A stretch of DNA of 64,000 bases from an uncultured Fibrobacteraceae bacterium (GTDB lineage Bacteria; Krumholzibacteriota; Krumholzibacteriia; LZORAL124-64-63). Below the pieces are notes generated by a model that had not been told where the DNA came from, searched no databases, and saw only the letters and a list, made by a program, of their open reading frames with translations. The stretch is taken from positions 17,006 through 81,005 of the forward strand of contig CAYQTJ010000001.1 of the NCBI GenBank assembly GCA_964420395.1, written 5' to 3'. The position numbers and the translations under genes were made by a program. Below, piece after piece: positions 10,380 through 60,695 of this stretch. The stretch's first letter is position 1. Every line of letters begins with the position of its first letter.

Positions 10380-10384
10380 TACCG

Positions 10385-11215: not shown

Positions 11216-11220
11216 CGGCG

Positions 11221-11658: not shown

Positions 11659-11753
11659 CGGGGCTCCCTGGTTGCGTGCGCGGGCGGCCCGGGCGTGCGG
11701 GACGCGCGGGGGATCATAGCATCGCGCCGGCCCCGTGGGAACGGGGCGATGGG

Positions 11754-29826: not shown

Positions 29827-29923
29827 GGAGCCTCCGCGGCGGAGTTCGGGAAAACGTCCGGGCGGGGCGGACCGGTCCGGGAAGCCCCGCCACGGCCCGC
29901 ATCCTAGCCTGTCCGCGGCCCGA

Positions 29924-29952
29924 TTGACAGGCCCGAGAGGACCGGGTATCTT
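29924..29952 (+). promoter_or_regulatory. Sigma70-type promoter for udk-hpt: TTGACA-N17-TATCTT
   Basis: TTGACA at 29924-29929, an exact 17-nt spacer, then TATCTT at 29947-29952. The udk ATG (29960) begins only 7 nt after the -10 and has no SD, implying a leaderless or near-leaderless mRNA. Confidence 0.55.
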
Positions 29953-29959
29953 CGCCGCC

Positions 29960-30640: not shown

Positions 30641-31191
30641 CCTGGGACGACGACGACCTGCTGCGCAAGCATCCGCAGCTCGAGCGGATCCTCATCCGCT
30701 CGGACGAGATCCACAAGCGCGTGCGCCAGCTCGGCAACGAGATCAGCCGGGACTACGCCGACGACGTGCCGGTGCTCGTGAGCATCCTCAAGGGGTCGTA
30801 CGTCTTCCTGGCGGACCTCACCCGCTGCCTGACGATCCCCCACGAGGTGGACTTCATGGCCATCTCGAGCTACCACGGCGGCACGCAGAGCACCGGCGTG
30901 GTGAAGATCGAGAAGGACCTGAAGACGAACATCACCGGGCGCGACGTCCTCATCGTCGAGGACATCGTCGACACCGGGCTGACGATCAGCTACCTGCTCG
31001 ACCTGCTGGGCACCCGCTCGCCGCGCAGCCTGCGCGTCTGCACCCTGCTCGACAAGACGCGCGCCCGGACGAAGGACGTGGCGGTCGCCTACAGCGGCTT
31101 CGAAATCCCCAGCGAGTTCGTCATCGGCTACGGCCTGGACTATGACGAGAAGTTCCGCAACCTGCCCTTCATCGGCGTCATGAGGGGTTGA
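30637..31191 (+). CDS. hpt: Hypoxanthine(-guanine) phosphoribosyltransferase
   Basis: GTG start overlaps the udk stop (GTGA). Contains LKGSYVFLADL and the PRPP motif VLIVEDIVDTGLT. Confidence 0.9.
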   Translation: MTWDDDDLLRKHPQLERILIRSDEIHKRVRQLGNEISRDYADDVPVLVSILKGSYVFLADLTRCLTIPHEVDFMAISSYHGGTQSTGVVKIEKDLKTNITGRDVLIVEDIVDTGLTISYLLDLLGTRSPRSLRVCTLLDKTRARTKDVAVAYSGFEIPSEFVIGYGLDYDEKFRNLPFIGVMRG

Positions 31192-31230
31192 CCGCGGCGG
31201 CGTCCGCCGCCCAGCTCAGGGGGACGAGGC

Positions 31231-32724
31231 ATGCCCAGCCGTCCGAGTCGGCCCGCCGTCACGCGGGGGGCGCTCCGCGAAGCTCTCACCTTCGACGACA
31301 TCCTCCTGCTGCCCGAATACTCCGAGGTACTGCCGCGGGACGTGGACACCTCCACGCGCGTCGCCCGCGACATCGCCCTGCCGGTGCCGTTCCTCTCCGC
31401 CGCTATGGACACCGTCACCGAGACCGACATGGCGATCGCCATGGCGCGCTCCGGCGGGCTGGGCGTGGTCCACAAGAACATGCCGCCCGCGGACCAGGCC
31501 GAGCACGTGGACGCGGTCAAGCGCAGCGAGTCCGGCATGATCACCGAGCCGATCACCCTCGGTCCGGACAGGCCGATCCACGAGGCCATGGCGATGATGA
31601 AGCGCTTCCGCATCTCGGGCGTGCCGATCACGCGGGGCCGCCGGCTGGTGGGCATCCTGACGAACCGCGACCTCCGTTTCGTCGAGGACACGTCGCGACC
31701 GGTGTCGGCGGTCATGACCAGCGAAGGGCTGGTGACGGCCCCCGAGGGGACCACGCTCGAGGAGGCGGCGCGCATCCTCCACCGCCATCGCATCGAGAAG
31801 CTGCCGGTCGTCAACGCGAAGGGCGAACTGCGCGGTCTGATCACGGTGAAGGACATCCAGAAGCGCATCGACTACCCGGACGCCTGCAAGGACCGGCTGG
31901 GGCGGCTGCGGGTGGCGGCCGCCGTCGGCACCGGGGAGGGGACCGCGGAGCGGATCGGGCTGCTCCTCGAGGCGGGGGCCGACCTGATCGTGATCGACAC
32001 GGCGCACGGTCATTCGCGCAACGTGATCGACGTCGTGAAGGCGGCGCGCAGGGCGCACCCGAAGGCGCGCCTGATGGCGGGCAACATCGGCACCGCGGAG
32101 GGGGCCGAGGCGCTGATCGCCGCCGGGGCGAACGCGCTCAAGGTGGGCATCGGTCCCGGCTCGATCTGCACGACCCGGGTGGTGTCGGGGGTGGGGGTGC
32201 CCCAGGTGACGGCCATCATGGACGTCGCGGCGGTGGCGCGCCCGCGCGGCGTGCCGGTGATCGCCGACGGCGGCATCAAGTACTCCGGCGACGTGACCAA
32301 GGCGCTGGCCGTGGGCGCCGACGCCGTCATGATCGGCTCGCTGTTCGCCGGCACGGAGGAGTCGCCGGGCGAGAAAGTCCTGTACGAGGGGCGCGTGTTC
32401 AAGTCGTACCGCGGCATGGGCTCGATTGCCGCCATGCGGGCCGGCAGCCGCGACCGGTACGGCCAGGAGGGGATCGACGATCCCGCGAAGCTGGTGCCGG
32501 AGGGGATCGAGGGGCAGGTCCCGTACAAGGGACAGGTGCGCGAGGTGCTGTTCCAGCTCGTGGGCGGGGTCCGCTCCGGCATGGGCTACTGCGGCTGTCG
32601 CACCATCGCCGATCTCCAGGCGCGGGCGCGGATCGTGCGCGTCACCGGCGCCGGGCTGCGCGAGAGCCATCCGCACGACGTGCGCATCACCAAGGAGGCC
32701 CCCAACTACGGCAAGGACCGCTGA
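31231..32724 (+). CDS. guaB: IMP dehydrogenase
   Basis: 497 aa with [10 protein letters not shown], a CBS pair and [11 protein letters not shown] (catalytic Cys loop); GGIKYSGD and the C-terminal YGKDR-type end follow. Confidence 0.95.
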
Positions 32725-39440: not shown

Positions 39441-39554
39441 AGGCGTTTTCGCCACGGCGGGCGCCACGGGCACACGCGAAAAGCGTACAAATTGTTCATA
39501 AAGAACAGCTTACGTCGAAAGGGAAAGGATATGAACGATTTGCACGAATTTACA

Positions 39555-39583
39555 CTTGACGGACCGGAGAGGCTTCGCTATCT
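39555..39583 (+). promoter_or_regulatory. Sigma70-type promoter for folE: TTGACG-N17-TATCTT
   Basis: TTGACG at 39555-39560, an exact 17-nt spacer, then TATCTT at 39578-39583. It has the same architecture as the udk promoter and is flanked on both sides by the repeat motif. Confidence 0.55.
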
Positions 39584-39621
39584 TGGCTGTGGTCGATTTG
39601 AACGAATTTGGAGGTTGGACG

Positions 39622-40245
39622 ATGATCATGAAGCAGGCAGGGATGGTCGATCCCGCGAAGCCGGACGCAGCCACGCCGGAGGTCGTGGACATGCCACGCG
39701 CGGAGGCAGCGGTGCGCGAACTGCTCGCCGCGCTGGGCGAGGACCCCGACCGGCCGGGGCTGCTCGACACGCCGCGCCGCGTGGCGCGGATGTACCGGGA
39801 GCTGTTCGCCGGCATCCAGGCCGATCCGCGACCGCACCTGCTGCGGACGTTCGACGAGGCGCACGAGGAGATCGTCCTGGTGCGCGACATCGATTTCTCC
39901 TCCCTCTGCGAGCATCACCTGCTGCCGTTCATGGGGCGGGCCCACGTGGCTTACCTGCCGCGCAGCAAAGTCGTCGGGCTGTCGAAGCTGGCGCGCACCG
40001 TGGACCTGTTCGGGCGCCGCCCGCAGGTGCAGGAGCGGATGACCGCGCAGATCGCCGACGCGCTCATGGAGCACCTCGAGCCGCACGGCGCGATGGTGGT
40101 CCTGGAGGCCGAGCACCTCTGCATGCGGGTGCGCGGCGTGGCCAAGCCGAACGCCGTGACGGTCACCTCGGCCGTGCGCGGCGCCTTCAAGGACAGCCCC
40201 GCCGCGCGCGCCGAGGCGATGGCGCTGCTCCAGCGGCGGAGCTAG
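39622..40245 (+). CDS. folE: GTP cyclohydrolase I
   Basis: The ATG at 39622 follows GGAGG. 207 aa with [29 protein letters not shown] and the HLCM motif. Confidence 0.9.
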
Positions 40246-46794: not shown

Positions 46795-47889
46795 ATGCCG
46801 GAACCGCGCGTCACGGCGGGGCGCCTGGCCGGGCTGCTGGGCGAGCTCTGCCCGCCGCGCGGGATCGCGCTGGCCGGCGCGGTGGCGCTGCCCTGCCCGC
46901 TGCCGCACGCCGCCGCGTTCCGCGCCTGGCTGGCCGCCGGCCGGCACGCCGGCCTCCCGTACCTCGCCCGCGATCCCGCCGCGCGCCTCGACCCGGCCGT
47001 GCAGCGCCCCTGGGCGCGGGCCGTGCTGGTCTTCGCGCAGCGCTACGCGGCCGGCTGGTCGCCCGACGACCGCTCGCCGTGGGACGGCGCCGCGCCGGGT
47101 CGCCCCTGGACCGACGGCGTGGCCCGCTACGCGCGCGGCCTCGACTACCACGACCTGCTGCTCGCCGACGTGAAGGGGGTGGTCGACGGCCTGCGCGGGC
47201 GGCTCGGCCCGTTCCGCGCGCACTGTGCGGTCGACACCGGTCCCTACCTGGAGCGGGAGTACGGCTGGCTCGCCGGACTCGGCTTCTTCGGCCGGAACAG
47301 CTGCCTGATCCACGAGCGACTCGGGTCGGGGCTGTTCCTCGGCGTGGCCGTGGTCGGGCTGGCGGTGGACGGCCTGCCGGCGGCCGGGGAGCCGGCGGCG
47401 GCGCCGCTCTGGGGCGAGGCGCCGCGCGCGGCCGCCGGGGCGGAGCCTCGCGCCGCCGGGCCGGGGCCGGCCTCGCGCTGCGGCTCCTGCCGGCTCTGCC
47501 AGGAGGCCTGCCCCACCGGTGCCCTCGACGCGCCGTTCGCGCTCGACGCCAACCGCTGCATCTCCACATGGACCATCGAATGGCGCGGGCGCGCGCCGGC
47601 CGGCGAGGAGCCGCGCCAGGGGGGACGGCTGTTCGGGTGCGACATCTGCCAGGCGGTCTGCCCCTGGAACCGTCGGGCCGCTCGCGCCGGCGGGGCGGTC
47701 CGCCCGGAGTACGGGGTCGACCCGGCGCACGCCGGCGTGAGCCTGGCCGATCTGCTCGGGATCGGCCCGGAGGAGTTCCGCCGCCGCTTCCGCCGTTCGC
47801 CGCTCTGGCGCGCGCACCCTGACGGCCTGCGGCGCAACGCCGCCACCGTCGCGTCCCACGGCCAACGGCCGTCGGAGGAGTCGCCATGA
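46795..47889 (+). CDS. queG: Epoxyqueuosine reductase
   Basis: 364 aa. Contains ARYARG.DYH, GLGFFGRNSCLI, two ferredoxin motifs (CGSCRLCQEACPTGAL and CDICQAVCPWN) and C-terminal LRRNAA. Confidence 0.85.
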   Translation: MPEPRVTAGRLAGLLGELCPPRGIALAGAVALPCPLPHAAAFRAWLAAGRHAGLPYLARDPAARLDPAVQRPWARAVLVFAQRYAAGWSPDDRSPWDGAAPGRPWTDGVARYARGLDYHDLLLADVKGVVDGLRGRLGPFRAHCAVDTGPYLEREYGWLAGLGFFGRNSCLIHERLGSGLFLGVAVVGLAVDGLPAAGEPAAAPLWGEAPRAAAGAEPRAAGPGPASRCGSCRLCQEACPTGALDAPFALDANRCISTWTIEWRGRAPAGEEPRQGGRLFGCDICQAVCPWNRRAARAGGAVRPEYGVDPAHAGVSLADLLGIGPEEFRRRFRRSPLWRAHPDGLRRNAATVASHGQRPSEESP

Positions 47890-48899
47890 AGGTCCCGGAG
47901 GCCGCCTGGTGGAGCGCCCTGCCCGACCGCGCGGTCCGGTGCGAGCTGTGCCCGCACGGCTGCCGGCTGGCGGACGGGCACGACGGTCCCTGCGGCACCC
48001 GCGCGAATGCCGGCGGGCGCATGGTGCCGAAGGAGTACGGGCGGCTCGTCTCGACCGCGGTCGATCCGATCGAGAAGAAGCCGCTCTACCACTTCCACCC
48101 CGGCTCGTCGATCCTGTCGATCGCCGCCCAGGGCTGCAACCTCCACTGCCGGTTCTGCCAGAACTGGACGATCAGCCAGGGGCGCGACGCGGCCGCCGCC
48201 GCCGCGGCGCCGGAGGAGGTGGTCGCCCTGGCGCTGGCGCGCCGCTCGCCCGGCGTGGCCTACACCTACAGCGAGCCGCTCGTCTGGTACGAATTCGTGC
48301 GGGACACGGCGCGGCTGGCCCGCGCGGCCGGGTTGCGCAACGTCATCGTGTCGAACGGCTACCTGAACGAGGCGCCGCTGCGCGCCCTGCTGCCGCTGAT
48401 CGACGCCGCCAACATCGACCTCAAGGCGATGGACGACCGTTTCTACCGGGAGATCTGCGGGGCGAGCCTGGCGCCGGTGCTGGCGACGATCCGGACCTGC
48501 CGGGAGATGGGGGTGCACCTCGAGGTGACCAATCTCGTCATCCCGGGCTGCAACGACGGGGACGGCCAGATCGGGCGCCTGGTCGATTTCGTGGCCGGCG
48601 TCGGACGCGACGTGCCGCTGCACTTCTCCGCCTACCGGCCCGACTGGAAGTTCGACGCGCCGCCCACGCCGCCGGCCACGCTCGCCCGCGCGGCGGCGCT
48701 CGCGCGACGGAAGCTGGACTACGTCTACGTGGGGAACGTGCGGCTGCCGGGCGGCTCGGACACCGTCTGCCCGGACTGCGGCGCGTCGTGCGTCGTGCGC
48801 GACGGGTTCTCCGCGCGGGTGCTGCTGCGCGACGGTGCGCGCTGCCCCGGCTGCGGCCGCACGCTGCCGATCGTCGTGACGGAGGCGCTCAGCCCGTGA
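47886..48899 (+). CDS. AmmeMemoRadiSam-system-type radical SAM enzyme
   Basis: ATGA overlap with queG. The N-terminal Cys cluster is CELCPHGCRL..G..G.CG. Also present are KPLYHFHPGS and the radical SAM motif GCNLHCRFCQNW. A C-terminal CPDCG...CPGCG zinc-ribbon-like end is present. Confidence 0.85.
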   Translation: MKVPEAAWWSALPDRAVRCELCPHGCRLADGHDGPCGTRANAGGRMVPKEYGRLVSTAVDPIEKKPLYHFHPGSSILSIAAQGCNLHCRFCQNWTISQGRDAAAAAAAPEEVVALALARRSPGVAYTYSEPLVWYEFVRDTARLARAAGLRNVIVSNGYLNEAPLRALLPLIDAANIDLKAMDDRFYREICGASLAPVLATIRTCREMGVHLEVTNLVIPGCNDGDGQIGRLVDFVAGVGRDVPLHFSAYRPDWKFDAPPTPPATLARAAALARRKLDYVYVGNVRLPGGSDTVCPDCGASCVVRDGFSARVLLRDGARCPGCGRTLPIVVTEALSP

Positions 48900-49686
48900 C
48901 GCTGCCGTCGATGATGAGGTCGGCTCCGGTGACGCCGCTCGATTCGTCCGACGCGAGGTAGAGGATGGCCTGCGCGACCTCGTCGGGCGTGGCGATGCGG
49001 CGCGGGGGAGCCGGCTCGTCGTGCGCCGGGGCGTCGCCTCCGGTCGCCGCGGGCGCGACGACCCGCTCCCAGATCGGCGCGTGCACGGCGCCCGGCAGCA
49101 CGCAGTTGACCCGGATGCCGTCGCCGCGCGCCGCGCACTCCAGCGCCACGACCTTGCTGAACAGCGAGACGGCCGCCTTGCTGGCGCCGTAGGCGCTCAC
49201 CCCCGGGCTGGCCCGGCGGCTCGAGGCCGACGACATGTTGACGATGCTGCCGCCCTGGCCGCGGCGCATCGCGATGACCCCCTGCTTCGTGCCGAGGAAG
49301 ACGCCGTCGAGGTTGACCGCCATGACCGCCCGCCAGGCGTCGAGGGACATCGTCTCGAGCGGCATCGCCACCGCCACGGCGGCATTGTTGACCAGGACGT
49401 CGAGCGAGCCCCACTGCTTGACCAGCGCGTCGATGGTCCCCTTCCAGTTCTCCTCGGAGGTGACGTCGAGCGGCGCGGCCAAGCCCATCCGGCCCGAGGC
49501 GCGGATCTCCGCCGCCGTGCGCTCGGCGCCCGCCGTGTCGCGGTCGGTGGCCAGGACGATCGCCCCCTCCCGCGCCAGGGCCAGCGCGGTCGAGCGGCCG
49601 ATGCCGGACGCGGCGCCGGTCACGAGGGCCACCTTGCCCTGCACCCGCCCGCGCGGCGGCGCATCGCTGCCGGGGATCCCGCTCAT
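48889..49686 (-). CDS. Short-chain dehydrogenase/reductase (classical SDR)
   Basis: 265 aa with [14 protein letters not shown] and S...YxxxK (YGASK). Its ATG overlaps the queF stop (ATGA on the minus strand). Its 3' end overlaps the convergent radical SAM gene by 11 nt. Confidence 0.85.
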
Positions 49687-50063
49687 GGGGCGTCCTCCGC
49701 GCCGGAGCCGGCCTGGCCGTAGGTGACGAGGACCCGCGTGGCGATCCCCCCGCGCACGAACCAGTCGCCGGCCACCGCGAGCCGCCGCGGCCGCACCGCC
49801 GCGATCAGGTCGTCGGCGATCCGGTTGGTGACCGCCTCGTGGAAGGCCCCCTCGTTCCGGTACGACCAGAGGTAGAGCTTGAGCGACTTCAGCTCCACGC
49901 AGGTCCCGTCCGGCACGTAGGTGATCTGGAAGCGGGCGAAGTCGGGCTGCCCGGTCAGCGGGCAGAGGCAGGTGAACTCCGGGCAGTCGAAGGTGATCTC
50001 GTAGTCCCGCTCCGGATTCGGATTGGGAAAGGTCTCGAGTTCGCGCGCCGGGCTGGAGGGCAT
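49683..50063 (-). CDS. queF: NADPH-dependent 7-cyano-7-deazaguanine (preQ0) reductase, type I
   Basis: 126 aa from the internal ATG at 50063. Contains the catalytic Cys context [15 protein letters not shown] and the QueF motif [20 protein letters not shown]. Confidence 0.9.
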
Positions 50064-50161
50064 GGCGAAGCGGTCCTTTCGGGCGGTCGGAGGGAGGGTG
50101 CTGCCGCGGCGCAGGATAAGCCGGCTCCCGCGGTCGCGCAAGCGGCCCGCCGCCGGCCCGC

Positions 50162-50195
50162 GGACGGACCGTGGGCCGGTGCCCACGGTCCGTCC
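50162..50195 (-). terminator. Perfect 15-bp hairpin after the S8 protease gene
   Basis: GGACGGACCGTGGGC / GCCCACGGTCCGTCC with a 4-nt loop, about 30 nt downstream of the protease stop (minus strand). There is no U-tract. Confidence 0.55.
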
Positions 50196-50223: not shown

Positions 50224-53200
50224 CTACTTGACGAGCGCCATGCGGCCCGTGTACGAGTCGGCCCCCGCCGTCACCCGGTAGAAGTACACCCCGGAGGAGA
50301 CCGCGTGGCCGGCGTCGTCGCGGCCGTTCCACTGCGTCTCGTGGGCGGCGGCCGGCAGGACGGCGTCCACGAGGACGCGCACCAGCCGTCCGGCCAGGTC
50401 GTACACGTTCACGCTGACGCGGCCGGCGGCCGGCAGCGTGAAGCGGATCCTGGTCAGCGGGTTGAACGGGTTGGGAGCCGCGTTCTCGACGCGGAAGACG
50501 AGCGCCGGCAGGTCCGGGTCGTCGAGGACCGGAACCAGCGCGCACATCACGCCGAGGGCGCCGATCAGGCCGCAGGCGCCGCTGACGGCCGGCTCGCACG
50601 GCGAGAGCGGCTTGAGGCCGTAGCCGCCGTCCGCGGGGAAGCAGAACTGCGGGTCGAGCGCGATGTTGCCGGCGGTGCCGGTGGGATCGGCCACGCCGGT
50701 GTAGCTCGTGCCGGTGTTGCTCCAGGCGTCGTTGCAGGTGAACGTCGGCGTGGACGACTGGGCGTGCACGGCGTTGCCGAACGTGGTGCCGCCGGTGTTG
50801 AGCGCGAAGATGTTGTTGGCGATGCCCGGGCTGGCGGCGTTCAGGTAGAGGCCGGCGGCGCCGACGCCGGCCGTGTTGGCGGCGAAGGTGTTGCCTCGCA
50901 CCTCGCCGGCCGCCACGGTCTGGCTGCTCAGGCCGCCGCCGAAGATGTCGGCCGCGTTGGCGCTGAAGACGCAGTGGCGCACGTCGGACTGCGGACTGCT
51001 GGTGACGGCTCCGCCCGCGCCGACCTGGGCGGTGTTGGCGCGCGAGAGCACGCTGTCGAGCGTGACGGTGGCGTTCTCGACGGCGAATGCGCCGCCGACC
51101 ATGAAGGTGGCCCCGGCCGCCTTGCCGTTGTCGTGCAGGTCGTCGCGGAGCATCGTGATGGCGTTGCCGCTCATCGCCAGGCCGCCGCCCTTGACGCGGG
51201 CCGTGTTGTGGTGGATCCGGTTGCCGACCAGGGCCAGCGAGGTCGTCGCGAGGGTGTTGGCCGCGTAGATGCCGCCGCCCGCCTCCGCGTCGACGTGGCC
51301 GCTGATCTCGCAGCCGTCCAGCAGCAGCGTGGTGTCGGTCGCGTAGATGCCGCCGCCGCGCGGCGGGTACGAGCCGTTGTCCTGCACCAAGACGTTGTCG
51401 TAGATGCGGCAGTCGCGCAGGGTGGGGGCGCCCAGGTAAGCGTAGACGCCGGCGCCCTGGACCGCGCTGTTGCCGTGCACCGTCACGTTCTCGAGCAGCG
51501 CCGAGGAGTTGGACAGCATGATGCCGCCGCCGCCGCCGAACTCGGAGGTGCCGCCCACGGAATTGCCGGTCACCTCGATGTTGCGCAGGGTGGGGGAGGT
51601 GCCGTTGCAGATGATCCCGCCGCCGTAGCGGCCGGTCTGCGGGCTGGAGAAGACCTGGCCGCCGCCGCCGCTGATGAGCAGGCCGTCGACCACGGTGCCC
51701 AGCCCGGTGCCGGTCTGGAAGAGCAGGCCGCTGCCGGAGAGGGAGGCGTTCAGGGGCGTGGGCGTGCCGACCGGATCGCGGGAGGCGAAGTCGGCGGCAT
51801 AGCCGCCGAGCAGGTAGAAGGACTTGTTCGCGACCGTCAGCGGACCGGTCAGCGGGGACGCGGCGCTGAGCGCGACGGTGTCGCCGGGGGCGGCCTCGTT
51901 CTGGGCGTCGAGCAGGCTGGAGAATTCGTCGGGGTACTTCAGCAGGCGGTCGCCGAGAGCCCGCAGCAGGTTCACCCGGCCGGAGCCGAGCTTGCCGGCC
52001 AGCCCCGGATTGAGCGCGTCGATGTTGTCGGCGGTCGACATGAGGCGGGTTCCCACCCCGAGGGCGGTCAGGCCCGGCTCGGCCGACATGATCAGCGCCG
52101 CCGCGCCGCAGGTCAGCGGCGAGCTGAACGACGTCCCGGCGACGGTGTTGTAGCCGTGCGAGCCGTCGGAGGCGACGTACCAGGTGGTGTAGATCCCGGT
52201 GCCGGGCGCGCTCAGTTCCACCCAGGTGCCGTAGCTCGAGAAGCTGGTCTTGCCGTCGTTGGCGTCGGTGGCGGCCACCGCGATCACGCCGGGGTAGTCG
52301 GCGAGGAACGAGGGCACTTCGTTGGCGTCGTTGCCGGCGGCGGTGATCACGAGGGCGCCGGCGGCCAGGCAGTAGTCCGCCGCCGTCTGCAGGTACTCGG
52401 TGGAGCCCCAGCTGCAGTTGATGAACTTGGCGCCGTTGGCCGCCGCGTAGATCATGCCCTGGGAGGCGAAGTCCATCCGCACCACGCCGGTCGTGGCGCC
52501 GTTCTGCAGCCAGCCGACGCGCACCGGCATGATCTTGCAGCCCCAGGAGGCGCCCGAGATGCCGACGCCGTTGTTGGTGATGGCGGCCGCCACGCCGGCG
52601 CAGGCCGTGCCGTGGCTCTCCCAGTCCGAGGGATCGTTGTCCGGCACGCTGACGTCCTCGCCCGGTTCGCCGGTCACGCCGGTGACGAAGTCCCAGCCGC
52701 GGGAGTCGTCGACCTTGCCGTTGCCGTCGTCGTCGACGCCGGCCACGCCGTTGGCCTCCGGCCAGTTGGTCCAGATCGCCCCGCGCCGGTAGTTGGGGCC
52801 GGAGCCGCCGAGGTCGGGGTGGCGCCAGTCGACGCCGGAGTCGACGATGGCGATGATCACGTTGCTGTCGCCCTGCGCCTCGGCCCAGCCGCCCACGGCG
52901 CGGATGTCCTTGGCGCCGAGCGTGAGATTGCGCAGGTACCACTGGGAGCCGAGGAACGGATCGTTGGGCAGCGCCGTCTGCGCGCAGATGTCCACCGCCT
53001 CCGCCCGGGCCACCTCCGGCAGCGCGGCGTAGGCCGCGAGCACGGCGTCGAGATCGACCGCCGTGGCGAAATCGACGGCCCAGACCAGGCTCAGGTCGGG
53101 CAGGCCCGCCTTCTTCGCGGGCGGCACCCCCTCGTAGAGGCGCGACATGTCGTGCGCCCCGAAGCGGTCGGCCAGCGCCTGGAGGGCGGGCCGATCGACC

Positions 53201-53373
53201 GTCACGCCGCCGGCCCGCTTGGCGACCGTCGGCTGCACGCCCGGCCGCAGGGTGATCACGACACGATCCGGCACGCGGGAGCCGGGCCCCCCCGCGGGGG
53301 CCGCGGGCGACGCGGCGGCCGACAGGGCGGAAATGGCGCAGGCGCCAACGAGGATGGCGAGACGCAGCTTCAT
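50224..53373 (-). CDS. Secreted S8 (subtilisin-family) serine protease with a right-handed beta-helix repeat region and a C-terminal FlgD-Ig/T9SS-type domain
   Basis: 1049 aa with a signal peptide. Catalytic triad contexts are [20 protein letters not shown] and [16 protein letters not shown] long Gly/Asn-rich repeat region (GGGIYA...N, typical of pectate-lyase-like helices) follows. The C-terminal domain is [31 protein letters not shown]...WNGRDDAG...SGVYFYRV. Confidence 0.85.
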
Positions 53374-53432
53374 GGGTCGTCCTCTCTGCAGGGAAGACAG
53401 GCACGGGATGTCGATACGCGCCCGACGGCGGG

Positions 53433-53462
53433 TTGATGGCGCATGGGCGCTTCAAGTATAAA
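53433..53462 (+). promoter_or_regulatory. Sigma70-type promoter candidate for the DUF3524 operon: TTGATG-N18-TATAAA
   Basis: TTGATG at 53433-53438, an 18-nt spacer, then TATAAA at 53457-53462, in an AT-richer patch. It overlaps the ATG at 53443, which argues against that ATG being the start. Confidence 0.4.
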
Positions 53463-53544
53463 GAAACCGAACGGTCGCATCAACGCGCAGCTTGGCAGGC
53501 CACGGCCCCGGCTCCGCCGCGACAGGCCTGGGAAGGACAAGACA

Positions 53545-54720
53545 TTGCCGCCATTGGACATCCTGTTCATCGAGCCGTATGACGGCGGTTCGCACCGCGC
53601 CTTCCGCGAGGGGCTCGCGAGCCGCTCCGGGCACCGCATCCGCTCCTGGACGCTGCCGGCGCGGTTCTGGAAGTGGCGCCTGCGGGGGGCCGCCCCGTGG
53701 TTCGCCGACGCGATCAACGCCGCGCGGCCGCCGTGCGACCTGATCCTGGCCACCGACTTCCTGAACGTGGCCGACTTCCGCGGGCTGCTGGACCCCCCCT
53801 ACGACCGCCGGCCCCTTCTTCTATATATGCACGAGAACCAGCTGACCTATCCCCTCTCTCCGGACGAGGAATTCGACTTTCATTTCGGGGCCACCAACAT
53901 CGTCTCGGCGCTGGCGGCCGACCGGGTGATCTTCAATTCCGAGTACCACCGGGCGCTGTTCCTGGACGGGATTCCGGCCTATCTCGGCCGGATGCCGGAG
54001 GCGATCCCGCGCGGCGTGCGGGCCCGGCTGGAGGCCAGGAGCGGCGTCCTGCCGGTCGGACTCGCCCGCCCCTGCCGCCCCGAGGGCGTCGGCGCGCCGT
54101 ACCTGGGGGGGGCGTGCGCGGCCGAGGCCGGACCGGCCTGGCCCCGCGACGGCGACTCGCCGCTCATCCTCTGGAATCACCGCTGGGAGTTCGACAAGCG
54201 CCCTGAGTGGCTGGCCGGCGCGCTGCGGCGCCTGGCGGCCGAGGAGGTGCCGTTCCGGGTCGCGCTGCTCGGCGATCCGCGCGGCCGCGCCGAGGCGTTC
54301 GCCCCGCTGCGCGAGTCGCTGGGCCGGCGGGTGGCGGCCTGGGGGGAGGCGCCGGCCGGGGAGGCCTACGCCGCCTGGCTCGCGCGGGCCGACGTGGTCG
54401 TCAGTTGCGCGGCGCAGGAGTATTTTGGCATTGCGGTCGCCGAGGCGGTGCACGCCGGCGCCTACGCGGTGCTGCCGCGCGAGCAGGTCTATCCTTCGCT
54501 CTATGGCCGCGCCTGCCGGGGCCGGCATCTCTACGACGGCGAGGCGGGATTGACGGGGCTGCTGCGCGACCTCCTGGCGGGGCGCTGCGGCCACGTCTGC
54601 GGCCTGCCCCCCGCGTGCGATGCCTTCTGCTGGGAGCGACTGGCGCCCCGCTTCGACGCCGAGCTGGCCGCCCTGGCGGCGACCGGCGGAAAGGACGGTC
54701 CGCGTGCCGCCACCCCGTGA
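53545..54720 (+). CDS. DUF3524 + GT1-type glycosyltransferase, homologue of eukaryotic GTDC1/QTMAN (tRNA-queuosine mannosyltransferase)
   Basis: Probable TTG start at 53545 after GGAAGGA; the ORF track ATG is at 53443. Colinear motifs shared with GTDC1, as I recall it: ILFIEPYDGGSH, TLPARFWKWRLRG, YMHENQLTYP, FDFHFGATNIVSALAADRVIFNS, WNHRWEFDKRPE and EYFGIAVAEAVHAG. Confidence 0.8.
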   Translation: MPPLDILFIEPYDGGSHRAFREGLASRSGHRIRSWTLPARFWKWRLRGAAPWFADAINAARPPCDLILATDFLNVADFRGLLDPPYDRRPLLLYMHENQLTYPLSPDEEFDFHFGATNIVSALAADRVIFNSEYHRALFLDGIPAYLGRMPEAIPRGVRARLEARSGVLPVGLARPCRPEGVGAPYLGGACAAEAGPAWPRDGDSPLILWNHRWEFDKRPEWLAGALRRLAAEEVPFRVALLGDPRGRAEAFAPLRESLGRRVAAWGEAPAGEAYAAWLARADVVVSCAAQEYFGIAVAEAVHAGAYAVLPREQVYPSLYGRACRGRHLYDGEAGLTGLLRDLLAGRCGHVCGLPPACDAFCWERLAPRFDAELAALAATGGKDGPRAATP

Positions 54721-55558
54721 GTACCGGGCATACCTGTGCGATGTCGAAGGGGTGCTGGTGCGGGACAAGGGCTACCGCGCGGTGCCGGGATCGGTGGCGT
54801 GGTTCAACCGGCTGGCGGCGCGCGGCATCGCCTCCTGCCTCGTCAGCAACAACAGCACCCACACTCCGGCCGAGCTGGGCGAGGCCCTGCGCGCCGCCGG
54901 CTTCGCCGTGGCGCCGGAGCGGATCGTCACCGCCCTGGAACTCGCCGCCGGGCGACTGGCGTCCGACGGCCGGCGGCGGCTGCTCTGGCTGGGGCACCCG
55001 CGCCTGGCCGGCTGGTGGCGGGAGCGCGGGTTCACGCTCGTGGGCGAGCCTCCCCCCGGCGGGGCGGCCGGCGCGGCCGGCGGGGCGCCCGGCGGGGCCA
55101 CGGCGGCAGGCGGGGAGGCCGACGCCGTCGTGCTGGGGGTCAACCCGACCCTCGGCGTGCCGGAACTCGAGCGGGCGCTCGGCTGCCTGCTGGCGGGGCA
55201 GACGGCGCTGATCGCGCTGCACCGCAACCATTTCTGGCTGGACGAGCGGGGGGAGCGCCGGCTGGGGCCGGGCGCCTGGTGCGCCGCCCTGGAGACCGCC
55301 GCCGGCTGCGCGGCGGTCACGATCGGCAAGCCGGAGGAGCCGATCTACCGGGAAGCGCTGGAAAGGGTTGGCGTCGCCGCGCCGGAGGCCCTATTCATTT
55401 CAGATGATCCCCTGGCGGATCTGCCGACCGCGAAGCGGCTCGGCATGGGGACCGCCTTCGTCCTGAGCGGCAAGCACGCGGATCATGCGGTGCTGCGCCG
55501 CCTCGAGCAGGCGGAGTGGCCGGACGTCATCTGCGACCGGCCCGAACACGTCGGTTGA
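54704..55558 (+). CDS. HAD-IIA (NagD-like) hydrolase-family protein
   Basis: The GTG at 54704 overlaps the glycosyltransferase 3' end by 17 nt. Motif I reads LCDVEGVL (DxE instead of DxD). Also SNNS (motif II) and GKPE...FISDD (motifs III/IV). Confidence 0.75.
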   Translation: MPPPREYRAYLCDVEGVLVRDKGYRAVPGSVAWFNRLAARGIASCLVSNNSTHTPAELGEALRAAGFAVAPERIVTALELAAGRLASDGRRRLLWLGHPRLAGWWRERGFTLVGEPPPGGAAGAAGGAPGGATAAGGEADAVVLGVNPTLGVPELERALGCLLAGQTALIALHRNHFWLDERGERRLGPGAWCAALETAAGCAAVTIGKPEEPIYREALERVGVAAPEALFISDDPLADLPTAKRLGMGTAFVLSGKHADHAVLRRLEQAEWPDVICDRPEHVG

Positions 55559-55587
55559 GCGGCCCGCGCCGCGGACGGGGAGCGGAT

Positions 55588-56508
55588 TTGGCGCTCGAGA
55601 GCGACAGCGCGGTGCGGTACGGCGGCCCGTCATCCGGCGGCCCACCCCCGGCCGAGGAGAAGGAACGCGAACGGGCGGTCCGGCCGGAGACGATCCGCCA
55701 CGCCCTCACCGCCTGGGAACTGGAATCCACCCGCGGACAGCGGCCCGACACGCCGCGCGCCCGGGCCAGCCTGCTGCGCGCCCACCAGCGGCTGCGCGCG
55801 GAGATGGAAGAACGGCGGGGCGTCCCGCCGGCCGACCGATCGATCATGCTCGCCGGGGAGGAGGGGGCGGACGCGGTGCTGGTCATCCACGGCGCCACCT
55901 CCACGCCGGCCGAGATGCGGCCGCTCGCCGAGGCGATCCACGCCGCCGGCTTCACCGTCTACGCCCCGCTCTTGCCGACCCGCGCCAATCTCGCGCCGGG
56001 CCTCGGCGACGTCCTCTGGCGGGCCTGCCTGCAGGAGGCCCGGCTGCGGCTGCGCTTCCTGCGCGAGGTGGGCCCGCGCGTGCACGTCGTCGGCCTGAGC
56101 TTCGGCGCCGCGATCGCCATCCACCTCGCCGGCGAGGAGAAGCCGCAGGGGGTGGTCCTGCTCGCGCCGGCCCTCGAGCCGCGCCTGCCGCTCTACGTGC
56201 GGCTGCTGCTGCGGCTGAACGTGCACCGGTTGCAGTGGGTGCGGCGCAAGTACGGCTGGAGCCTCGAGGTGCTCGAGGCGATGGAGAGGGCGCGGCCGCT
56301 GCTCTCCCGGCTCGACATGCCGGTCTACGCGGCGCAGTGCCAGGACGACGAGCGGATCGCGGCCGTCTCCCTGCGGATGGTCCAGCGCAAGGCCAGGCAC
56401 AAGGCCTCCCGCTTCCGCCTCTACCCCCGCGGAGGGCACCGGATCCTGCAGGCCCACGGTCCCGCCGGCCTCCACGCCGAAATCGTCGACTTCCTGCGGG
56501 AGATCTGA
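55588..56508 (+). CDS. Alpha/beta-hydrolase (carboxylesterase-like)
   Basis: The start is uncertain: TTG 55588, GTG 55516 or ATG 55804. Contains VLVIHGATSTP, the nucleophile elbow VVGLSFGAAIA and a C-terminal GGHRIL (His). Confidence 0.7.
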   Translation: MALESDSAVRYGGPSSGGPPPAEEKERERAVRPETIRHALTAWELESTRGQRPDTPRARASLLRAHQRLRAEMEERRGVPPADRSIMLAGEEGADAVLVIHGATSTPAEMRPLAEAIHAAGFTVYAPLLPTRANLAPGLGDVLWRACLQEARLRLRFLREVGPRVHVVGLSFGAAIAIHLAGEEKPQGVVLLAPALEPRLPLYVRLLLRLNVHRLQWVRRKYGWSLEVLEAMERARPLLSRLDMPVYAAQCQDDERIAAVSLRMVQRKARHKASRFRLYPRGGHRILQAHGPAGLHAEIVDFLREI

Positions 56509-56681: not shown

Positions 56682-58541
56682 ATGAGCGAGCGTGAGGACG
56701 AGTTCGGCGCGGACCCCGACGCCGAGGCCTGGAAGGACTCGCCCGCGGCCGGAGATTCGCCGGCCGTCACGGGCTGGGAAGCGTGGGATACGAAGCCGGA
56801 GCCCGCCGCCGCGCCGACGGCGCCTCACCGCCACGGACCGCTGGGCGGCTTGCAGCCGCCGTGGCTGCCGGGCGCGCTGAGCGCCCTGCTCGTGGTGCTC
56901 GCGGGCGCGGTCGCCTTCGGGGCGGCGCGCGGCGGCTTCAGGGGGCCGCTCGACGTGCGCGGCCTGGTCGGTCTCGGCTTCGCCGCGGGCGGCGCGCTGG
57001 CGCTGGCGGCGCTCGCCGGGTGGGCGGTCAGCACGCTGGCGGCCCGCTACGAGCGCGAGCACCGGCGGCACCGCGCCCTGCTGGCCCGGCTGGGGACGCT
57101 CGACCTGGACAGCGACAGCGGCTGGCAGGATCCGTCGCTGCGCGCCGAGGGGGACCTGTCGCGGTTCCTCGACGCCGTGCGGGCCCGCGATCGCCTGCAG
57201 CGGTCGGCGCTGGCCAGGTCCGCGGTCCTCGAGGGGGAACTGACCCGCCTCGGCAAGGGGCTGCTCGCGGGCGAACGGTCCGCCGTCACCGAGGCGTACG
57301 AGATGCCGCTGGTCGGCCGGGCCGCGTCGGGAGCGGCGCTGCTGCACGAGGAGATCGACCGGCTGCGCGTCGCGCAGGCGGAACTGGAAGCGAAGCTGCA
57401 GGAGGCCGGCGGCCAGGCCACGACCGCCGCCGCCGAGGCGCGGCGCTGGCAGGCCCAGGCCGGCGGGCGCCTGGGCGCCCTGCAGACCGCCCTGCAGCGC
57501 GTCGGGTCCGAGACCCAGCGGCTGGCCGGCGCCTTCGCGGAGAAGCTGCGCGCGCTCGAGGAGATCGAGCAGCGCGGGGTGCCTTCGCTCGTCGACGTGC
57601 GGGGCGCCCTGCCGGCGGAGGCCGCCGGCGCCCAGGCGGGGCAGTTGATCCAGACCGCGCACGCCATCAAGGACCTGGTCGCCCGCGGCGGCAGCCTGGC
57701 GATCCAGACCGCCCTCGAGGTGACGCGGCTGGGCGATCGGGGGGAGACTCTCTTCCCGCTCACGGAGAGCCTCAAGAGCCTGGTCACGGAGTTCCAGGGC
57801 ATCGCGACCCGCCTCGAGAGGGCGGCGCGCGACCAGGAGTCGACCGGGTCGGCGCTGGCCCGCGCGCAGGCCCAGATGGACGAAATCGTCGCCGCCTCCG
57901 GGCGCGACATCCCCGAGCCGGAAGCGTGGCGCCGCGGCGCCGCGCGGGCCGGCGAGCTCCGGGCCGCCCTCGTGCGGATCGGCGCCGACGCCGACGCCCT
58001 CGTGCAGGCCTTCGCGGAGCAGGGCGCGCGCCTCGAGGCGCTCGCCGGGGCGCTGTCCGAGCTGACCGGAGTCGCCTGCGAGGCGATCGACGCGACGGCG
58101 CCCGGCGCCGGCGGCTTCGAGATCGAGGCGTTCGGCGGCCCGGCGCTCGGCGAGTCGGATCCCGCGTTCCCGGCCCGGGCCCCGGCGGCACCGCCGGCAA
58201 CGCCCGCGCCGGCCGCGCCGACGGCGGCCGCCCCCGCGCACGACCGCCTCTTCGCGGTGGACGCGCCTCCGGCCGGGGCGCCCGCGGCGCCGGCCGCGCC
58301 GCGCGGCGGATCGATCTTCGCGCCGGAGGAGCCGCGGCTCGATGGCGGCGAACCGGACGCGCCGGCGACCCCGGAGGCTCCCGCGGAGGCTGCCGCGGAG
58401 GCGGAGCGCATCTACGAGCTGGCGGAGTTCGGCGCCGTCGCGCTCGACGCTCCGTCGGCGGCGCCGGCGGCACCGCCGGCGATGGAGGAGGAGGATCACA
58501 TTTACGATCTTCACGAACTGGGCGCCGTGGCCCTCGGCTGA
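56682..58541 (+). CDS. Two-TM membrane protein with a long coiled-coil and a divergent MCP signalling-tip-like segment; twin C-terminal IY(E/D)L.E(F/L)GAVAL motifs
   Basis: The ATG at 56682 follows AAAGGAAG. 619 aa. TM helices span about aa 61-82 and 94-117. Residues 339-368 (LAIQTALEVTRLGDRGETLFPLTESLKSLV) align by eye to the MCP tip [30 protein letters not shown]. Confidence 0.6.
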   Translation: MSEREDEFGADPDAEAWKDSPAAGDSPAVTGWEAWDTKPEPAAAPTAPHRHGPLGGLQPPWLPGALSALLVVLAGAVAFGAARGGFRGPLDVRGLVGLGFAAGGALALAALAGWAVSTLAARYEREHRRHRALLARLGTLDLDSDSGWQDPSLRAEGDLSRFLDAVRARDRLQRSALARSAVLEGELTRLGKGLLAGERSAVTEAYEMPLVGRAASGAALLHEEIDRLRVAQAELEAKLQEAGGQATTAAAEARRWQAQAGGRLGALQTALQRVGSETQRLAGAFAEKLRALEEIEQRGVPSLVDVRGALPAEAAGAQAGQLIQTAHAIKDLVARGGSLAIQTALEVTRLGDRGETLFPLTESLKSLVTEFQGIATRLERAARDQESTGSALARAQAQMDEIVAASGRDIPEPEAWRRGAARAGELRAALVRIGADADALVQAFAEQGARLEALAGALSELTGVACEAIDATAPGAGGFEIEAFGGPALGESDPAFPARAPAAPPATPAPAAPTAAAPAHDRLFAVDAPPAGAPAAPAAPRGGSIFAPEEPRLDGGEPDAPATPEAPAEAAAEAERIYELAEFGAVALDAPSAAPAAPPAMEEEDHIYDLHELGAVALG

Positions 58542-58592
58542 CGACCGCGTGCCGCGCGTCCGCCCGGACGGGCGCGCGGCGCGACATCGCCC

Positions 58593-60695
58593 ATGAACGA
58601 TCACATCCAGCTCTTCACCCTGCAGTTGCGCGAGCAGCTGGCGGGGCTGCGCGAAGTGTCGGTGCAGGGCCGCTGGGACGGGCCGGCCCCCGCGTCGCTG
58701 CCCCGCGCCGTCATCGCGACCCGTCTGCTCGCCGGCAGCAGCGAACTGCTCGGCGTGACGGCGCTGCGCGACTGGCTGCGCATCCTGCTCGAGCTCCTGA
58801 ACTGGATCGCCGAGAACCCGCACGGCGCCCTGGCCGCCTACGAGCCGGTGCTGCGCGAGATCGTGGCGTTCGAGGAGGCGCTCATCGAGGGGCTGGACGG
58901 CGGGGGGGCGCCGGAGGACCTGGTGTCGCCGGAGCGCGTGGCCCGCCTGCGCCAGGGTTTCGCCGCCGCGGCGCGGGAGCATGCCACCGCGCGCGCGCGG
59001 GCGGCGTCCGGCGCGCCGCCGCGTCCGGAGCCGGAGCCGGTCCGGCTGCGTCTGGAGGGTCTCGACGACCCGCGGGCGGTCGTCTCGTGGGAGTCGATGC
59101 TGGCGATCATCGAACGGCTCGTCACCAAGGTGCCCCATCCCCGGCCGAGCGATGACCCGCAGGCCGACGAGGAGCGCTCGCGGCGCCAGCAGCGCTGGCG
59201 GCAGGTCCGTGCGCTCGGCGACTCGCTGTTCGAAACCGAGGACTACGAGCGCGACGCCGCGCCGGCGGAGGCCGAGGCGAAGGATCCCCACGAGGCGCTG
59301 CCGCTCCTGCCCGGCGGGGCCCTGTTCCGGGAGGCGCTCGGGGCGGGGTGGCGCGAGGGGCTGACCGCCGTGAAGGGGGACCAGCCGGCCGGCGGCGACG
59401 GCCGCGAGCCGTGGACGCTGCGCTGGCGCGTGCCGGGGCTGACCGTGGAGGGGGCGCCGCCGGGATCGCCCGGGGTGGACGAGCTGTTCCCGGAGGAGGA
59501 GCAGCGGCGCTACGGACGGCTGCTCGGGCTGATGGCGACCGATCTCTGCCAGGCGATCGGGCCCGCCGCGCCGCGCTGGCTGCTGCTGGTGGATCTGGGC
59601 GCGGAGCGGGTGACCGCCGAGTTCCGCCGTCCTCCGGGCCGGATGCCGGCCGAGGCGGCGCGGGCGCTCGGCCATCTGCTGGAGGAGGACTTCCTCATCG
59701 AGTCCCCCAGCCTGCGCGCCGCGCTGCGGCGGCTGCGGCGGGACGGCGCGCTCGTGCACGCGCATTTCGGACCGCGCGGCGAGGGCTGCCTCCAGGTGGT
59801 GCTGCCGCTGCACCTCGCCGGCGCGCCCGAGGTGTGCGTGCTGTCGCTCGCGGACGCGGAGGTGGCGGCCCCCCTGCACCTCGTGGAGGCGGTCGTGCCG
59901 GCGGAGGGGTGGCAGCGGCGCAGCGCGCACGACGGCGATACGCTGGTCCGCCAGGGGCAGAGCCTGCTCGCCGCCGACCTCGCCTCCTGGGTGGAACTGC
60001 TCATGCCGACCTCCACGACCGAGCCGGGCGGCCACCTCGCCCTCGTCGGTCTGGTGGAGAAGCGGGTGGCACTGCTCACCACCGGCCCGGCCCGGCGCGC
60101 CGCCGTGGTCCGCTACGTGGAGACCCCGGCCGGCTGGGAGGCGGTCGCCAGGAGCGGCGTGGAGACGGCGGGCGGGATCGTGCTGCCGCTGCTGGACATC
60201 GAGAAGGTCCTGTCGCTGCGGTTGAGCCGCGCCGAGCCGGTCGACGGGGCCGGCGGGGACCTGGCGGCCGACTGGAGTCCCGGCGGCCCCGCTCCGGCGG
60301 GCGCCGCGTCCGCCGCGTCGGACGGCGCGCCCGCGGGGGGACCGGGGGCGCGCATCCTGCTGCTGGTGGCGAGCCGATTCCGCGCGGGCGACCTGGAGGA
60401 GAAGCTGGCCAAGTCCGGCTATGCGGTCAGCGTCTGCACCGAGCCGGGCGAGGCGCGCGGCCGCCTGCGGTCCGGGGACATCGACGCGATCGTCTGCGAC
60501 AACGCGGAGCCGGCCCGCTGCCTGGACGGACTCCTCGCCCTGCTGGCGCAGCACGGCGAGACGGCGCCCGGCCCGGTCATCCTGGCGACCGGCAGCAGCG
60601 GCGAACCGGCGCGCCGCCTGGCGCGGCGGCTCGGGGCCACCGGCGTCTGGACCCCCCCCTACCTCGTGGACGAACTGCGGTCCCAACTGGTCTGA
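58593..60695 (+). CDS. CheA-like scaffold without a recognisable kinase domain: Hpt-like (His-less) N-terminus, CheW-like domain and pseudo-receiver
   Basis: 700 aa. The N-terminal four-helix-like segment ...RAVIATRLLAGSSELLGV... lies where Hpt has RxxHxxKG. The CheW-like pattern spans about aa 412-540 (VRQGQSLLAADLASW..., HLALVGLVEKRVALL, GGIVLPLLDIEKVL). In the C-terminal REC-like fold, LLLVAS replaces DD and TPP replaces KP. No N/G1/G2 ATP-binding boxes were seen. Confidence 0.55.
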   Translation: MNDHIQLFTLQLREQLAGLREVSVQGRWDGPAPASLPRAVIATRLLAGSSELLGVTALRDWLRILLELLNWIAENPHGALAAYEPVLREIVAFEEALIEGLDGGGAPEDLVSPERVARLRQGFAAAAREHATARARAASGAPPRPEPEPVRLRLEGLDDPRAVVSWESMLAIIERLVTKVPHPRPSDDPQADEERSRRQQRWRQVRALGDSLFETEDYERDAAPAEAEAKDPHEALPLLPGGALFREALGAGWREGLTAVKGDQPAGGDGREPWTLRWRVPGLTVEGAPPGSPGVDELFPEEEQRRYGRLLGLMATDLCQAIGPAAPRWLLLVDLGAERVTAEFRRPPGRMPAEAARALGHLLEEDFLIESPSLRAALRRLRRDGALVHAHFGPRGEGCLQVVLPLHLAGAPEVCVLSLADAEVAAPLHLVEAVVPAEGWQRRSAHDGDTLVRQGQSLLAADLASWVELLMPTSTTEPGGHLALVGLVEKRVALLTTGPARRAAVVRYVETPAGWEAVARSGVETAGGIVLPLLDIEKVLSLRLSRAEPVDGAGGDLAADWSPGGPAPAGAASAASDGAPAGGPGARILLLVASRFRAGDLEEKLAKSGYAVSVCTEPGEARGRLRSGDIDAIVCDNAEPARCLDGLLALLAQHGETAPGPVILATGSSGEPARRLARRLGATGVWTPPYLVDELRSQLV

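Follow-up and report, generated by a model that had tools for sequence, protein, structure and literature searches.

A bacterial member of the tRNA-queuosine mannosyltransferase (QTMAN/GTDC1) family and its gene context in a Krumholzibacteriota-like clade

Introduction

In Escherichia coli, queuosine (Q) at position 34 (Q34) of tRNA-Asp is hypermodified by GluQRS (YadB), a paralogue of the aminoacyl-tRNA synthetases that transfers glutamate. Glycosylation of Q34 is known from vertebrates, where QTMAN (GTDC1), the sole characterised member of its family, acts on Q34 of tRNA-Asp (10.64898/2026.06.28.735034), with GDP-mannose as the donor and the allylic hydroxyl of Q as the site at which an alpha-glycoside is formed; lysine 296 of the human enzyme is needed for mannosyl-queuosine (manQ) formation and has been proposed to be catalytic (preprint 10.64898/2026.06.28.735034). 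The other known Q-glycosylating enzyme, QTGAL (B3GNTL1), is the galactosyltransferase of vertebrate tRNA-Tyr Q34, which employs UDP-galactose and generates, in an SN2-type reaction, a beta-glycoside instead of the alpha-linkage made by QTMAN (10.64898/2026.06.28.735034). The present analysis concerns a stretch of 64,000 nucleotides of contig CAYQTJ010000001.1 (the window; positions are counted from its first letter), derived from an uncultured bacterium of the GTDB lineage Krumholzibacteriota, in which an earlier reading of the sequence by itself had pointed to a bacterial homologue of QTMAN, encoded at 53545-54720 in an operon with a HAD-IIA and an alpha/beta-hydrolase gene.

The enzyme proposed here would share with GluQRS the class of substrate (the cyclopentenediol of Q34), and both are bacterial stand-alone genes, but the fold and the chemistry of the two proteins are unrelated. 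QTGAL did not turn up in the searches made for this analysis.

Family assignment

The gene under study is the following:

53545-54720, plus strand: QTMAN/GTDC1-family glycosyltransferase, 391 residues, TTG start; QTMAN_N (DUF3524) N-terminal domain followed by a GT1-type Rossmann C-terminal domain.

The gene is enclosed in a longer open reading frame (53443-54720), in a window with a G+C content of approximately 74%, and its TTG start at 53545 is preceded by GGGAAGGA. The translation has the length initially given, 391 residues, and contains all of the six motifs by which the protein had been recognized, namely ILFIEPYDGGSH, TLPARFWKWRLRG, YMHENQLTYP, FDFHFGATNIVSALAADRVIFNS, WNHRWEFDKRPE and EYFGIAVAEAV. 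Pfam profile searches with the DUF3524 and GT1-type models returned PF12038 (QTMAN_N, formerly DUF3524) with 194.3 bits (E=1.8e-57, cut-off 25), the match covering positions 2-168 of the 168 of the profile, and, on the C-terminal half of the protein, PF13692 with 29.1 bits (E=1.3e-6, cut-off 27), while PF00534 stayed under its cut-off in the same region (23.3 bits, cut-off 26.4). The closest database protein, P0001, from a Candidatus Krumholzibacteria metagenome-assembled genome (MAG), is also 391 residues long and 91% identical over 100% of the query, and is named by NCBI 'tRNA-queuosine alpha-mannosyltransferase domain-containing protein', so that the homology to QTMAN had already been flagged by automated database annotation.

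For comparison with the vertebrate proteins a human GTDC1 query was used, which is 100% identical to a database protein of 458 residues, P0286, that carries all of the human motifs quoted in the initial description; the names tRNA-queuosine alpha-mannosyltransferase or GTDC1 are given to its macaque orthologues (96% identical) and to many more proteins of vertebrates. BLASTP aligned the window protein with P0286 in both domains, with 30% identity over 245 positions (E=7e-30) for the N-terminal segment and 34% identity over 166 positions (E=7e-25) for the C-terminal one, and in the reverse search P0286 matched the window protein and all 150 of the family representatives listed, so that the similarity holds in both directions. 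A chimeric query, in which the human motifs were placed in the window protein in order to reach eukaryotic homologues, brought back only the same bacterial matches.

Vertebrate QTMAN and the window protein therefore share the succession of a QTMAN_N/DUF3524 domain and a GT1-type C-terminal domain, as the sequence-only reading had maintained, along with the signature motifs GGSH, WxWR, HENQxxYP, FNS, HRWExDK and FGxxxxEA, the E-x7-E motif and the catalytic lysine (K296 in the human enzyme, K218 here). They differ in length, the vertebrate enzyme being approximately 70 residues longer, with an interdomain insertion at about human residues 180-285 that is mostly missing from the window protein. 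In a crude neighbour-joining tree the vertebrate QTMANs are found beside a protein from an Omnitrophota MAG. That the product of 53545-54720 genuinely belongs to the QTMAN (GTDC1/DUF3524) family, as one of its bacterial members, can be regarded as practically certain.

Residue conservation and fold

Conservation was evaluated in an alignment of 141 sequences, formed by 137 bacterial representatives (one per 50%-identity cluster) and four vertebrate proteins. R45, H96, E97, Q99, R213 and G295 (numbering of the window protein) are invariant, and S16, H17, W42, W44, Y102, P103, N131, S132, W210, D217, K218 and E300 are kept in at least 135 of the 141 sequences, the human residue being present at every one of these positions. 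K218, with which human K296 aligns, and E300 are each conserved in 140/141 sequences, and the position of E292 is occupied by Glu or Asp in all 141; E292 and E300 form the E-x7-E motif that is typical of retaining GT4 enzymes. In GT-B enzymes acceptor binding is the job of the N-terminal domain, and it is in this domain that the majority of the signature residues is found. Since these residues are mostly N-terminal and kept from bacteria to human, the acceptor site would be conserved and, with it, probably the acceptor itself; this is the main in silico argument for a common acceptor.

An AlphaFold2 model calculated from 29 sequences (mean pLDDT 86.5, pTM 0.87) predicts two Rossmann-like halves. 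Foldseek searches of the PDB with the model yielded only GT4-type retaining GT-B enzymes (E ~1e-10, TM 0.55-0.67, with 11-18% sequence identity), among them MshA, GlgM, SenB, sucrose-phosphate synthase (SPS), PimA, BshA and tetrahydrobiopterin glucosyltransferase. On the basis of the model the fold class, that of a retaining, GT4-like GT-B enzyme, can be considered settled, and such a predicted fold is consistent with an alpha-linkage in the product. A phmmer search of the PDB with the glycosyltransferase gave no match, so that no QTMAN structure is available there for a comparison at the level of residues.

Distribution of the family

An exhaustive search of representatives of 50%-identity clusters gave 2414 clusters with E<=1e-3, of which 772 reach E<=1e-30, and, in a scan of one genome per species, at least 598 GTDB species carry a homologue at E<=1e-30. 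The carriers listed belong to the Krumholzibacteriota-like clade, Desulfobacterota, Spirochaetota, Planctomycetota, Chloroflexota, Bacteroidota and KSB1, and further to TA06, Acidobacteriota, Acidimicrobiia and Myxococcota. Two further carriers, an Omnitrophota MAG and Aestuariirhabdus haliotis, a gammaproteobacterium available in culture, came to light in cluster look-ups. Desulfatibacillum alkenivorans DSM 16219 and Geomonas diazotrophica Red69, which have likewise been cultured, also carry a homologue. No QTMAN homologue was found in phage and viral collections.

Proposed reaction

For donor, acceptor and product, the following scheme may be drawn by homology with vertebrate QTMAN. The protein would be a retaining GT-B glycosyltransferase, in which the C-terminal Rossmann domain would bind the nucleotide sugar and the N-terminal QTMAN_N domain the acceptor. 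The likeliest donor would be GDP-mannose, the identity of the donor not being readable from the sequence. The acceptor would be the cyclopentenediol of Q at position 34 of tRNAs with a GUN anticodon, possibly tRNA-Asp by analogy with the vertebrate enzyme, and the product a hexosyl-queuosine. Glycosylation of Q34 is the best reading of the data because the signature residues of the acceptor domain are essentially invariant from bacteria to human, and we consider it somewhat better than an even chance that the enzyme would carry out this reaction; that the product would specifically be manQ made from GDP-mannose is a more tentative proposal, and one that we would sooner doubt than accept.

Several observations weigh against the glycosylation of Q34. 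The identity to the vertebrate enzyme is just 30-34%. No bacterium is known to contain glycosylated Q: a literature search found nothing on bacterial QTMAN homologues or on bacterial glycosylated Q, the original 2023 QTMAN paper lying outside that search. The lack of bacterial glycosylated Q is in line with what the sequence-only reading had stated. The solved structures closest to the model are mostly those of GT4 enzymes acting on small molecules (MshA, GlgM, SenB, SPS, BshA). The family proteins have no marked basic character (median pI 6.2, with 7.1 for the N-terminal and 5.5 for the C-terminal domain), the pI being uninformative as a proxy for RNA binding. Outside the clade of the window the homologues show no association with Q genes in the genome, as detailed below, and genes for tRNAs with a GUN anticodon are not enriched near the homologues, with one tRNA-Asp among the 14 tRNA genes present in 82 loci.

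The HAD-IIA and alpha/beta-hydrolase-fold partner genes

Two genes follow on the same strand:

54704-55558, plus strand: HAD-IIA family hydrolase, 284 residues, GTG start; TIGR01460 with 114.5 bits (cut-off 100.15).
55612-56508, plus strand (open reading frame opening at 55516, start uncertain): alpha/beta-hydrolase-fold protein, approximately 298 residues; Hydrolase_4 E=4.6e-13, Abhydrolase_6 E=5.1e-9.

The HAD-IIA assignment of the first partner, its overlap with the glycosyltransferase gene and its unusual motif I had all been described correctly: the protein passes the TIGR01460 cut-off, the sequence of the junction confirms that the GTG start at 54704 overlaps the glycosyltransferase stop by 17 nt, and motif I reads D-V-E-G, with Glu at the Asp+2 position of the general acid/base. 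The D-[VI]-E-G pattern is invariant in 8/8 HAD orthologues of the clade, in which the nucleophilic Asp and the S/T, Lys and DD motifs are intact. The Glu is a selected feature and not a sign of decay, as judged from its presence in all eight orthologues. The HAD enzyme enolase-phosphatase E1 is active with a D-x-E-G motif, and the Glu need therefore not abolish activity. The nearest solved relatives of the protein are HDHD2, PLP phosphatase/chronophin and NagD-type phosphatases. An apparent glycosyltransferase-HAD fusion of 589 residues (P0122) was discarded as a frameshifted read-through, in which the region of HAD motif I is out of frame and the frame returns later, probably owing to an assembly indel or a pseudogene. 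The N-terminal extensions of two other homologues, P0138 and P0202, contain no Pfam domain.

For the second partner, initially described as esterase-like, fold and position were borne out, but not a conserved catalytic apparatus. Among solved structures it is closest to small carboxylesterases and monoacylglycerol lipases, and an N-terminal extension of approximately 80 residues, which includes an invariant Trp, is conserved among the orthologues. The G-x-S-x-G elbow (G-L-S-F-G) is present only in the window protein, L001 and L005 among 11 orthologues (L-numbers denote the loci compared); in the other eight (L003, L006-L011 and L038) the Ser is replaced by Gly to give G-x-G-x-G, while the Asp and the His are kept. 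In most of the clade the protein may thus be a non-catalytic pseudoenzyme or an adaptor, and, because the nucleophilic Ser is replaced in 8/11 orthologues, a conserved esterase or deacylation step in a Q-glycosylation pathway appears unlikely.

Neighbourhood in the window

Upstream of the three genes the window contains the following features:

53374-53544: divergent intergenic region of 171 nt, between the S8-queF-SDR unit (minus strand) and the glycosyltransferase-HAD-hydrolase unit (plus strand).
50224-53373, minus strand: secreted S8 subtilase, 1049 residues, with beta-helix and C-terminal FlgD_ig; Peptidase_S8 E=5.5e-43, with Beta_helix and FlgD_ig matches.
49683-50186, minus strand: queF, unimodular preQ1 synthase; PF14489 E=1.1e-30, TIGR03139 with 175.5 bits (cut-off 86.9).
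48889-49686, minus strand: SDR gene, overlapping queF by 4 nt.
47886-48899, plus strand: AmmeMemoRadiSam-type radical SAM gene, overlapping queG by 4 nt; TIGR04337 with 333 bits.
46795-47889, plus strand: queG, epoxyqueuosine reductase; QueG_DUF1730 and Fer4_16, TIGR00276 with 184.8 bits, slightly short of its cut-off (200).
39535-40245, plus strand: folE, GTP cyclohydrolase I; PF01227 E=6.6e-76, NF006826 with 273 bits.

The distances of queF, queG and folE from the glycosyltransferase gene, given as about 3.5, 6 and 14 kb in the initial description, were measured as 3.4, 5.7 and 13.3 kb, respectively, all upstream. The description of an operon within a queuosine-gene neighbourhood stands in that these genes are nearby, but they belong to separate units and their linkage to the glycosyltransferase is restricted to one clade: queF is part of the S8-queF-SDR unit, on the opposite strand and transcribed away from the glycosyltransferase gene, queG is part of a FabK-like/queG/AmmeMemoRadiSam unit, and none of queF, queG and folE is in the glycosyltransferase transcription unit. 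A single sigma-70-like site was detected in the divergent intergenic region, on the minus strand (53483-53455); a promoter and terminator scan of the glycosyltransferase-HAD-hydrolase operon on the plus strand gave nothing informative, and an Rfam scan of the whole window for riboswitches or other RNA elements gave no family at the gathering score. The genes tgt, queA, queC, queD and queE are not within the 64-kb window. QueG acts on tRNA-bound epoxy-Q, and the presence of queF together with queG implies that the host would make Q itself. The bacterial enzyme would in this respect differ from vertebrate QTMAN, which depends on Q obtained by queuine salvage and not de novo.

With queF beginning 37 nt past the S8 stop, the transcription unit is an odd one for a preQ1 synthase; the arrangement is conserved in L001. 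The radical SAM gene beside queG was considered as a candidate Q enzyme and rejected, its TIGR04337 match being that of the AmmeMemoRadiSam type; no AMMECR1 or Memo partner is found among the annotated genes of the window. Downstream of the operon are two genes whose products have no significant Pfam or NCBIfam match, a 610-residue Ala/Glu-rich protein (56709-58541), which recurs in 11 loci, and a 717-residue protein (58542-60695), which recurs in four and has one sub-threshold Response_reg match. Elsewhere in the window ARAGORN called a tRNA-Glu(CTC) of 87 nt at 18613-18699, inside the gene of an outer-membrane efflux protein, and a tRNA-Ser(GCT) of 97 nt at 28200-28296; at least the former is probably a false call, since Rfam finds no tRNA in the window at the gathering score. 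A purine-salvage cluster at 28534-32724 (a CNT-family nucleoside transporter gene on the minus strand, phosphoribosyltransferase and IMP dehydrogenase genes, then YgjP-like and HD-domain genes) is unrelated to the glycosyltransferase.

Gene context within the clade and in other phyla

Synteny was assessed by tblastn of the window HAD, hydrolase, QueF, QueG, FolE, radical SAM, SDR and S8 proteins against 84 loci, and the matches are confined to the Krumholzibacteriota-like clade. The clade comprises 12 loci, ten of them distinct, with glycosyltransferases that are 59-74% identical. The hydrolase-fold gene lies downstream of the glycosyltransferase gene in all of these loci, the HAD gene is present in 8/12 (it is missing from L003, L004, L009 and L038), the S8 protease gene adjoins the glycosyltransferase gene in L001-L011 and L038, and queF, queG and the radical SAM gene are near it in 7/10 distinct loci, the queG-radical SAM pair recurring in seven clade loci. 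Equally syntenic are the S8 protease, two large proteins without a Pfam match and a STAS-HD protein. As the whole region is an inherited synteny block, co-location within the clade is weak evidence of a common function. The conservation of the glycosyltransferase-HAD-hydrolase triad is accordingly limited to this one clade, with the HAD gene absent from 4/12 loci, and co-transcription with these two partners, found in the Krumholzibacteriota-like clade, is not described for vertebrate QTMAN. The HAD-IIA and hydrolase-fold genes are lineage-specific and outside the core function of the family.

For other phyla, a sample of approximately 70 loci was studied, with glycosyltransferases 35-45% identical to that of the window. 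No relative of the window HAD, hydrolase, queF, queG or folE genes is found within 10 kb in these loci. With E. coli sequences as probes for Tgt, QueA, QueC, QueD and QueE, for which the negatives are slightly less certain, no tgt, queA, queD or queE was found within 10 kb, and a single queC match (L053) in 1.27 Mb of DNA is about the level expected by chance and serves as a partial positive control for the probes. The 131 immediate neighbours of the homologues fall into 146 Pfam families, the commonest of which, the response regulators, occurs six times, and neither this census nor de novo clustering of the neighbouring open reading frames revealed a conserved partner outside the clade. The gene thus stands alone in variable contexts, as expected of a tRNA-modification gene and untypical of polysaccharide loci, with no positive link to Q. 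The functional weight that had been given to the gene context does not hold, given a clade-wide synteny block and no partner elsewhere, and no independent evidence of function comes from this locus, so that the glycosylation of Q in bacteria, though plausible, is a proposal that rests on homology.

A lineage-specific association was detected in four spirochaete loci (L017, L019, L045 and L070), in which the gene abuts or overlaps, at around 10000-11900 of the loci, a small gene for an RsmB/F-type RNA m5C methyltransferase, the gap being 2 nt in L019, -18 nt in L045 and -43 nt in L070. Genes for a phosphogluco/phosphomannomutase and for a HAD-IA protein are repeatedly found upstream, in sets of spirochaete loci that overlap. 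These neighbours hint, for this lineage, at an RNA substrate and at a supply of hexose phosphate.

Alternative explanations

Among the GT4 GT-B enzymes that use small acceptors, some have a partner phosphatase and form a two-step pathway with it, as in the systems formed by sucrose-phosphate synthase and phosphatase, by MshA and MshA2 and by glucosylglycerate synthase and phosphatase. By analogy, the window glycosyltransferase might act on a phosphorylated small molecule and the HAD protein remove the phosphate, to yield a compatible solute or a cofactor, with the hydrolase-fold protein as an accessory. The co-directional glycosyltransferase and HAD genes with their 17-nt overlap and the relationship of the HAD-IIA protein with small-molecule phosphatases fit such a pathway, and a small-molecule acceptor stays alive as a rival because the best fold matches, tetrahydrobiopterin glucosyltransferase included, are mostly enzymes of that kind. 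The fold is indeed common to the window protein and to MshA, BshA, SenB, GlgM, SPS and the GDP-mannose-dependent PimA, but the N-terminal domains of these enzymes lack the QTMAN_N signature, which in the window family is specific and has residues invariant up to human; moreover, identity to the small-molecule GT4 enzymes is 11-18% and no NCBIfam synthase model matches. The putative phosphatase is missing both from L003, L004, L009 and L038 and from the surroundings of the approximately 70 other carriers, where the PF00702 HAD model matches 3/131 immediate neighbours, and the one apparent glycosyltransferase-HAD fusion is a frameshift artefact. A two-step pathway of this type is on balance unlikely.

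The arguments from homology apply equally to a different nucleic-acid or nucleoside acceptor, be it a diol-bearing modified base other than Q, epoxy-Q or a further precursor of Q, queuosine or queuine in the free state, or a nucleoside of rRNA, and the RsmB/F-type RNA methyltransferase genes adjoining the spirochaete homologues, as well as the lack of linkage to Q genes in most phyla, could be accommodated by an acceptor of this sort. Q34 of tRNA-Asp is, however, the substrate of the only family member that has been characterised, the residues of the acceptor domain are invariant family-wide, and no homologues were found in the phage and viral collections, in which 7-deazaguanine DNA modification is common; another nucleoside acceptor therefore seems rather improbable. 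Still less credible is the role of a common envelope glycosyltransferase with a polysaccharide or a glycolipid as its substrate, as might be suggested by the GT1/GT4 C-terminal domain, by the automatic name given to homologues by JGI ('glycosyltransferase involved in cell wall biosynthesis') and by the adjoining gene for a secreted S8 protease. The N-terminal domain is QTMAN-specific, only 2/131 immediate neighbours match GT1, polysaccharide-export and polymerase families do not figure among the 25 that are most frequent in the neighbours, and no NCBIfam model for exopolysaccharide or lipopolysaccharide enzymes is matched above its cut-off, the best, HpsP, reaching 26.9 bits against 550.

Concluding remarks

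With glycosylation of Q34 as the preferred reading, the distribution of the family may be given a wider meaning, to which we assign even chances: glycosylated Q would be a widespread bacterial tRNA hypermodification and not a vertebrate invention, made by the QTMAN-family enzymes that at least 598 species of at least ten phyla encode (including Desulfobacterota, Spirochaetota, Planctomycetota, Chloroflexota, Krumholzibacteriota, Omnitrophota and some Gammaproteobacteria); the QTMAN of animals would have its origin in the bacterial family; and the Krumholzibacteriota enzyme would have as additional partners a D-x-E HAD protein and an alpha/beta-hydrolase-fold protein that is frequently devoid of its nucleophile. 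If the bacterial enzymes do glycosylate Q34, a new modified nucleoside would be added to the repertoire of bacterial tRNA, and manQ-type chemistry would be older than animals. In vertebrates the consequences of Q glycosylation, with effects on the rate of translation and on the protection of tRNA from cleavage, are only beginning to be understood, and simple bacterial systems would become available for asking what the modification does. The hypothesis is directly testable since cultured carriers exist. Should the bacterial enzymes not glycosylate Q34, the outcome would also be informative, as a highly conserved acceptor pocket would then have been re-used for a different substrate.

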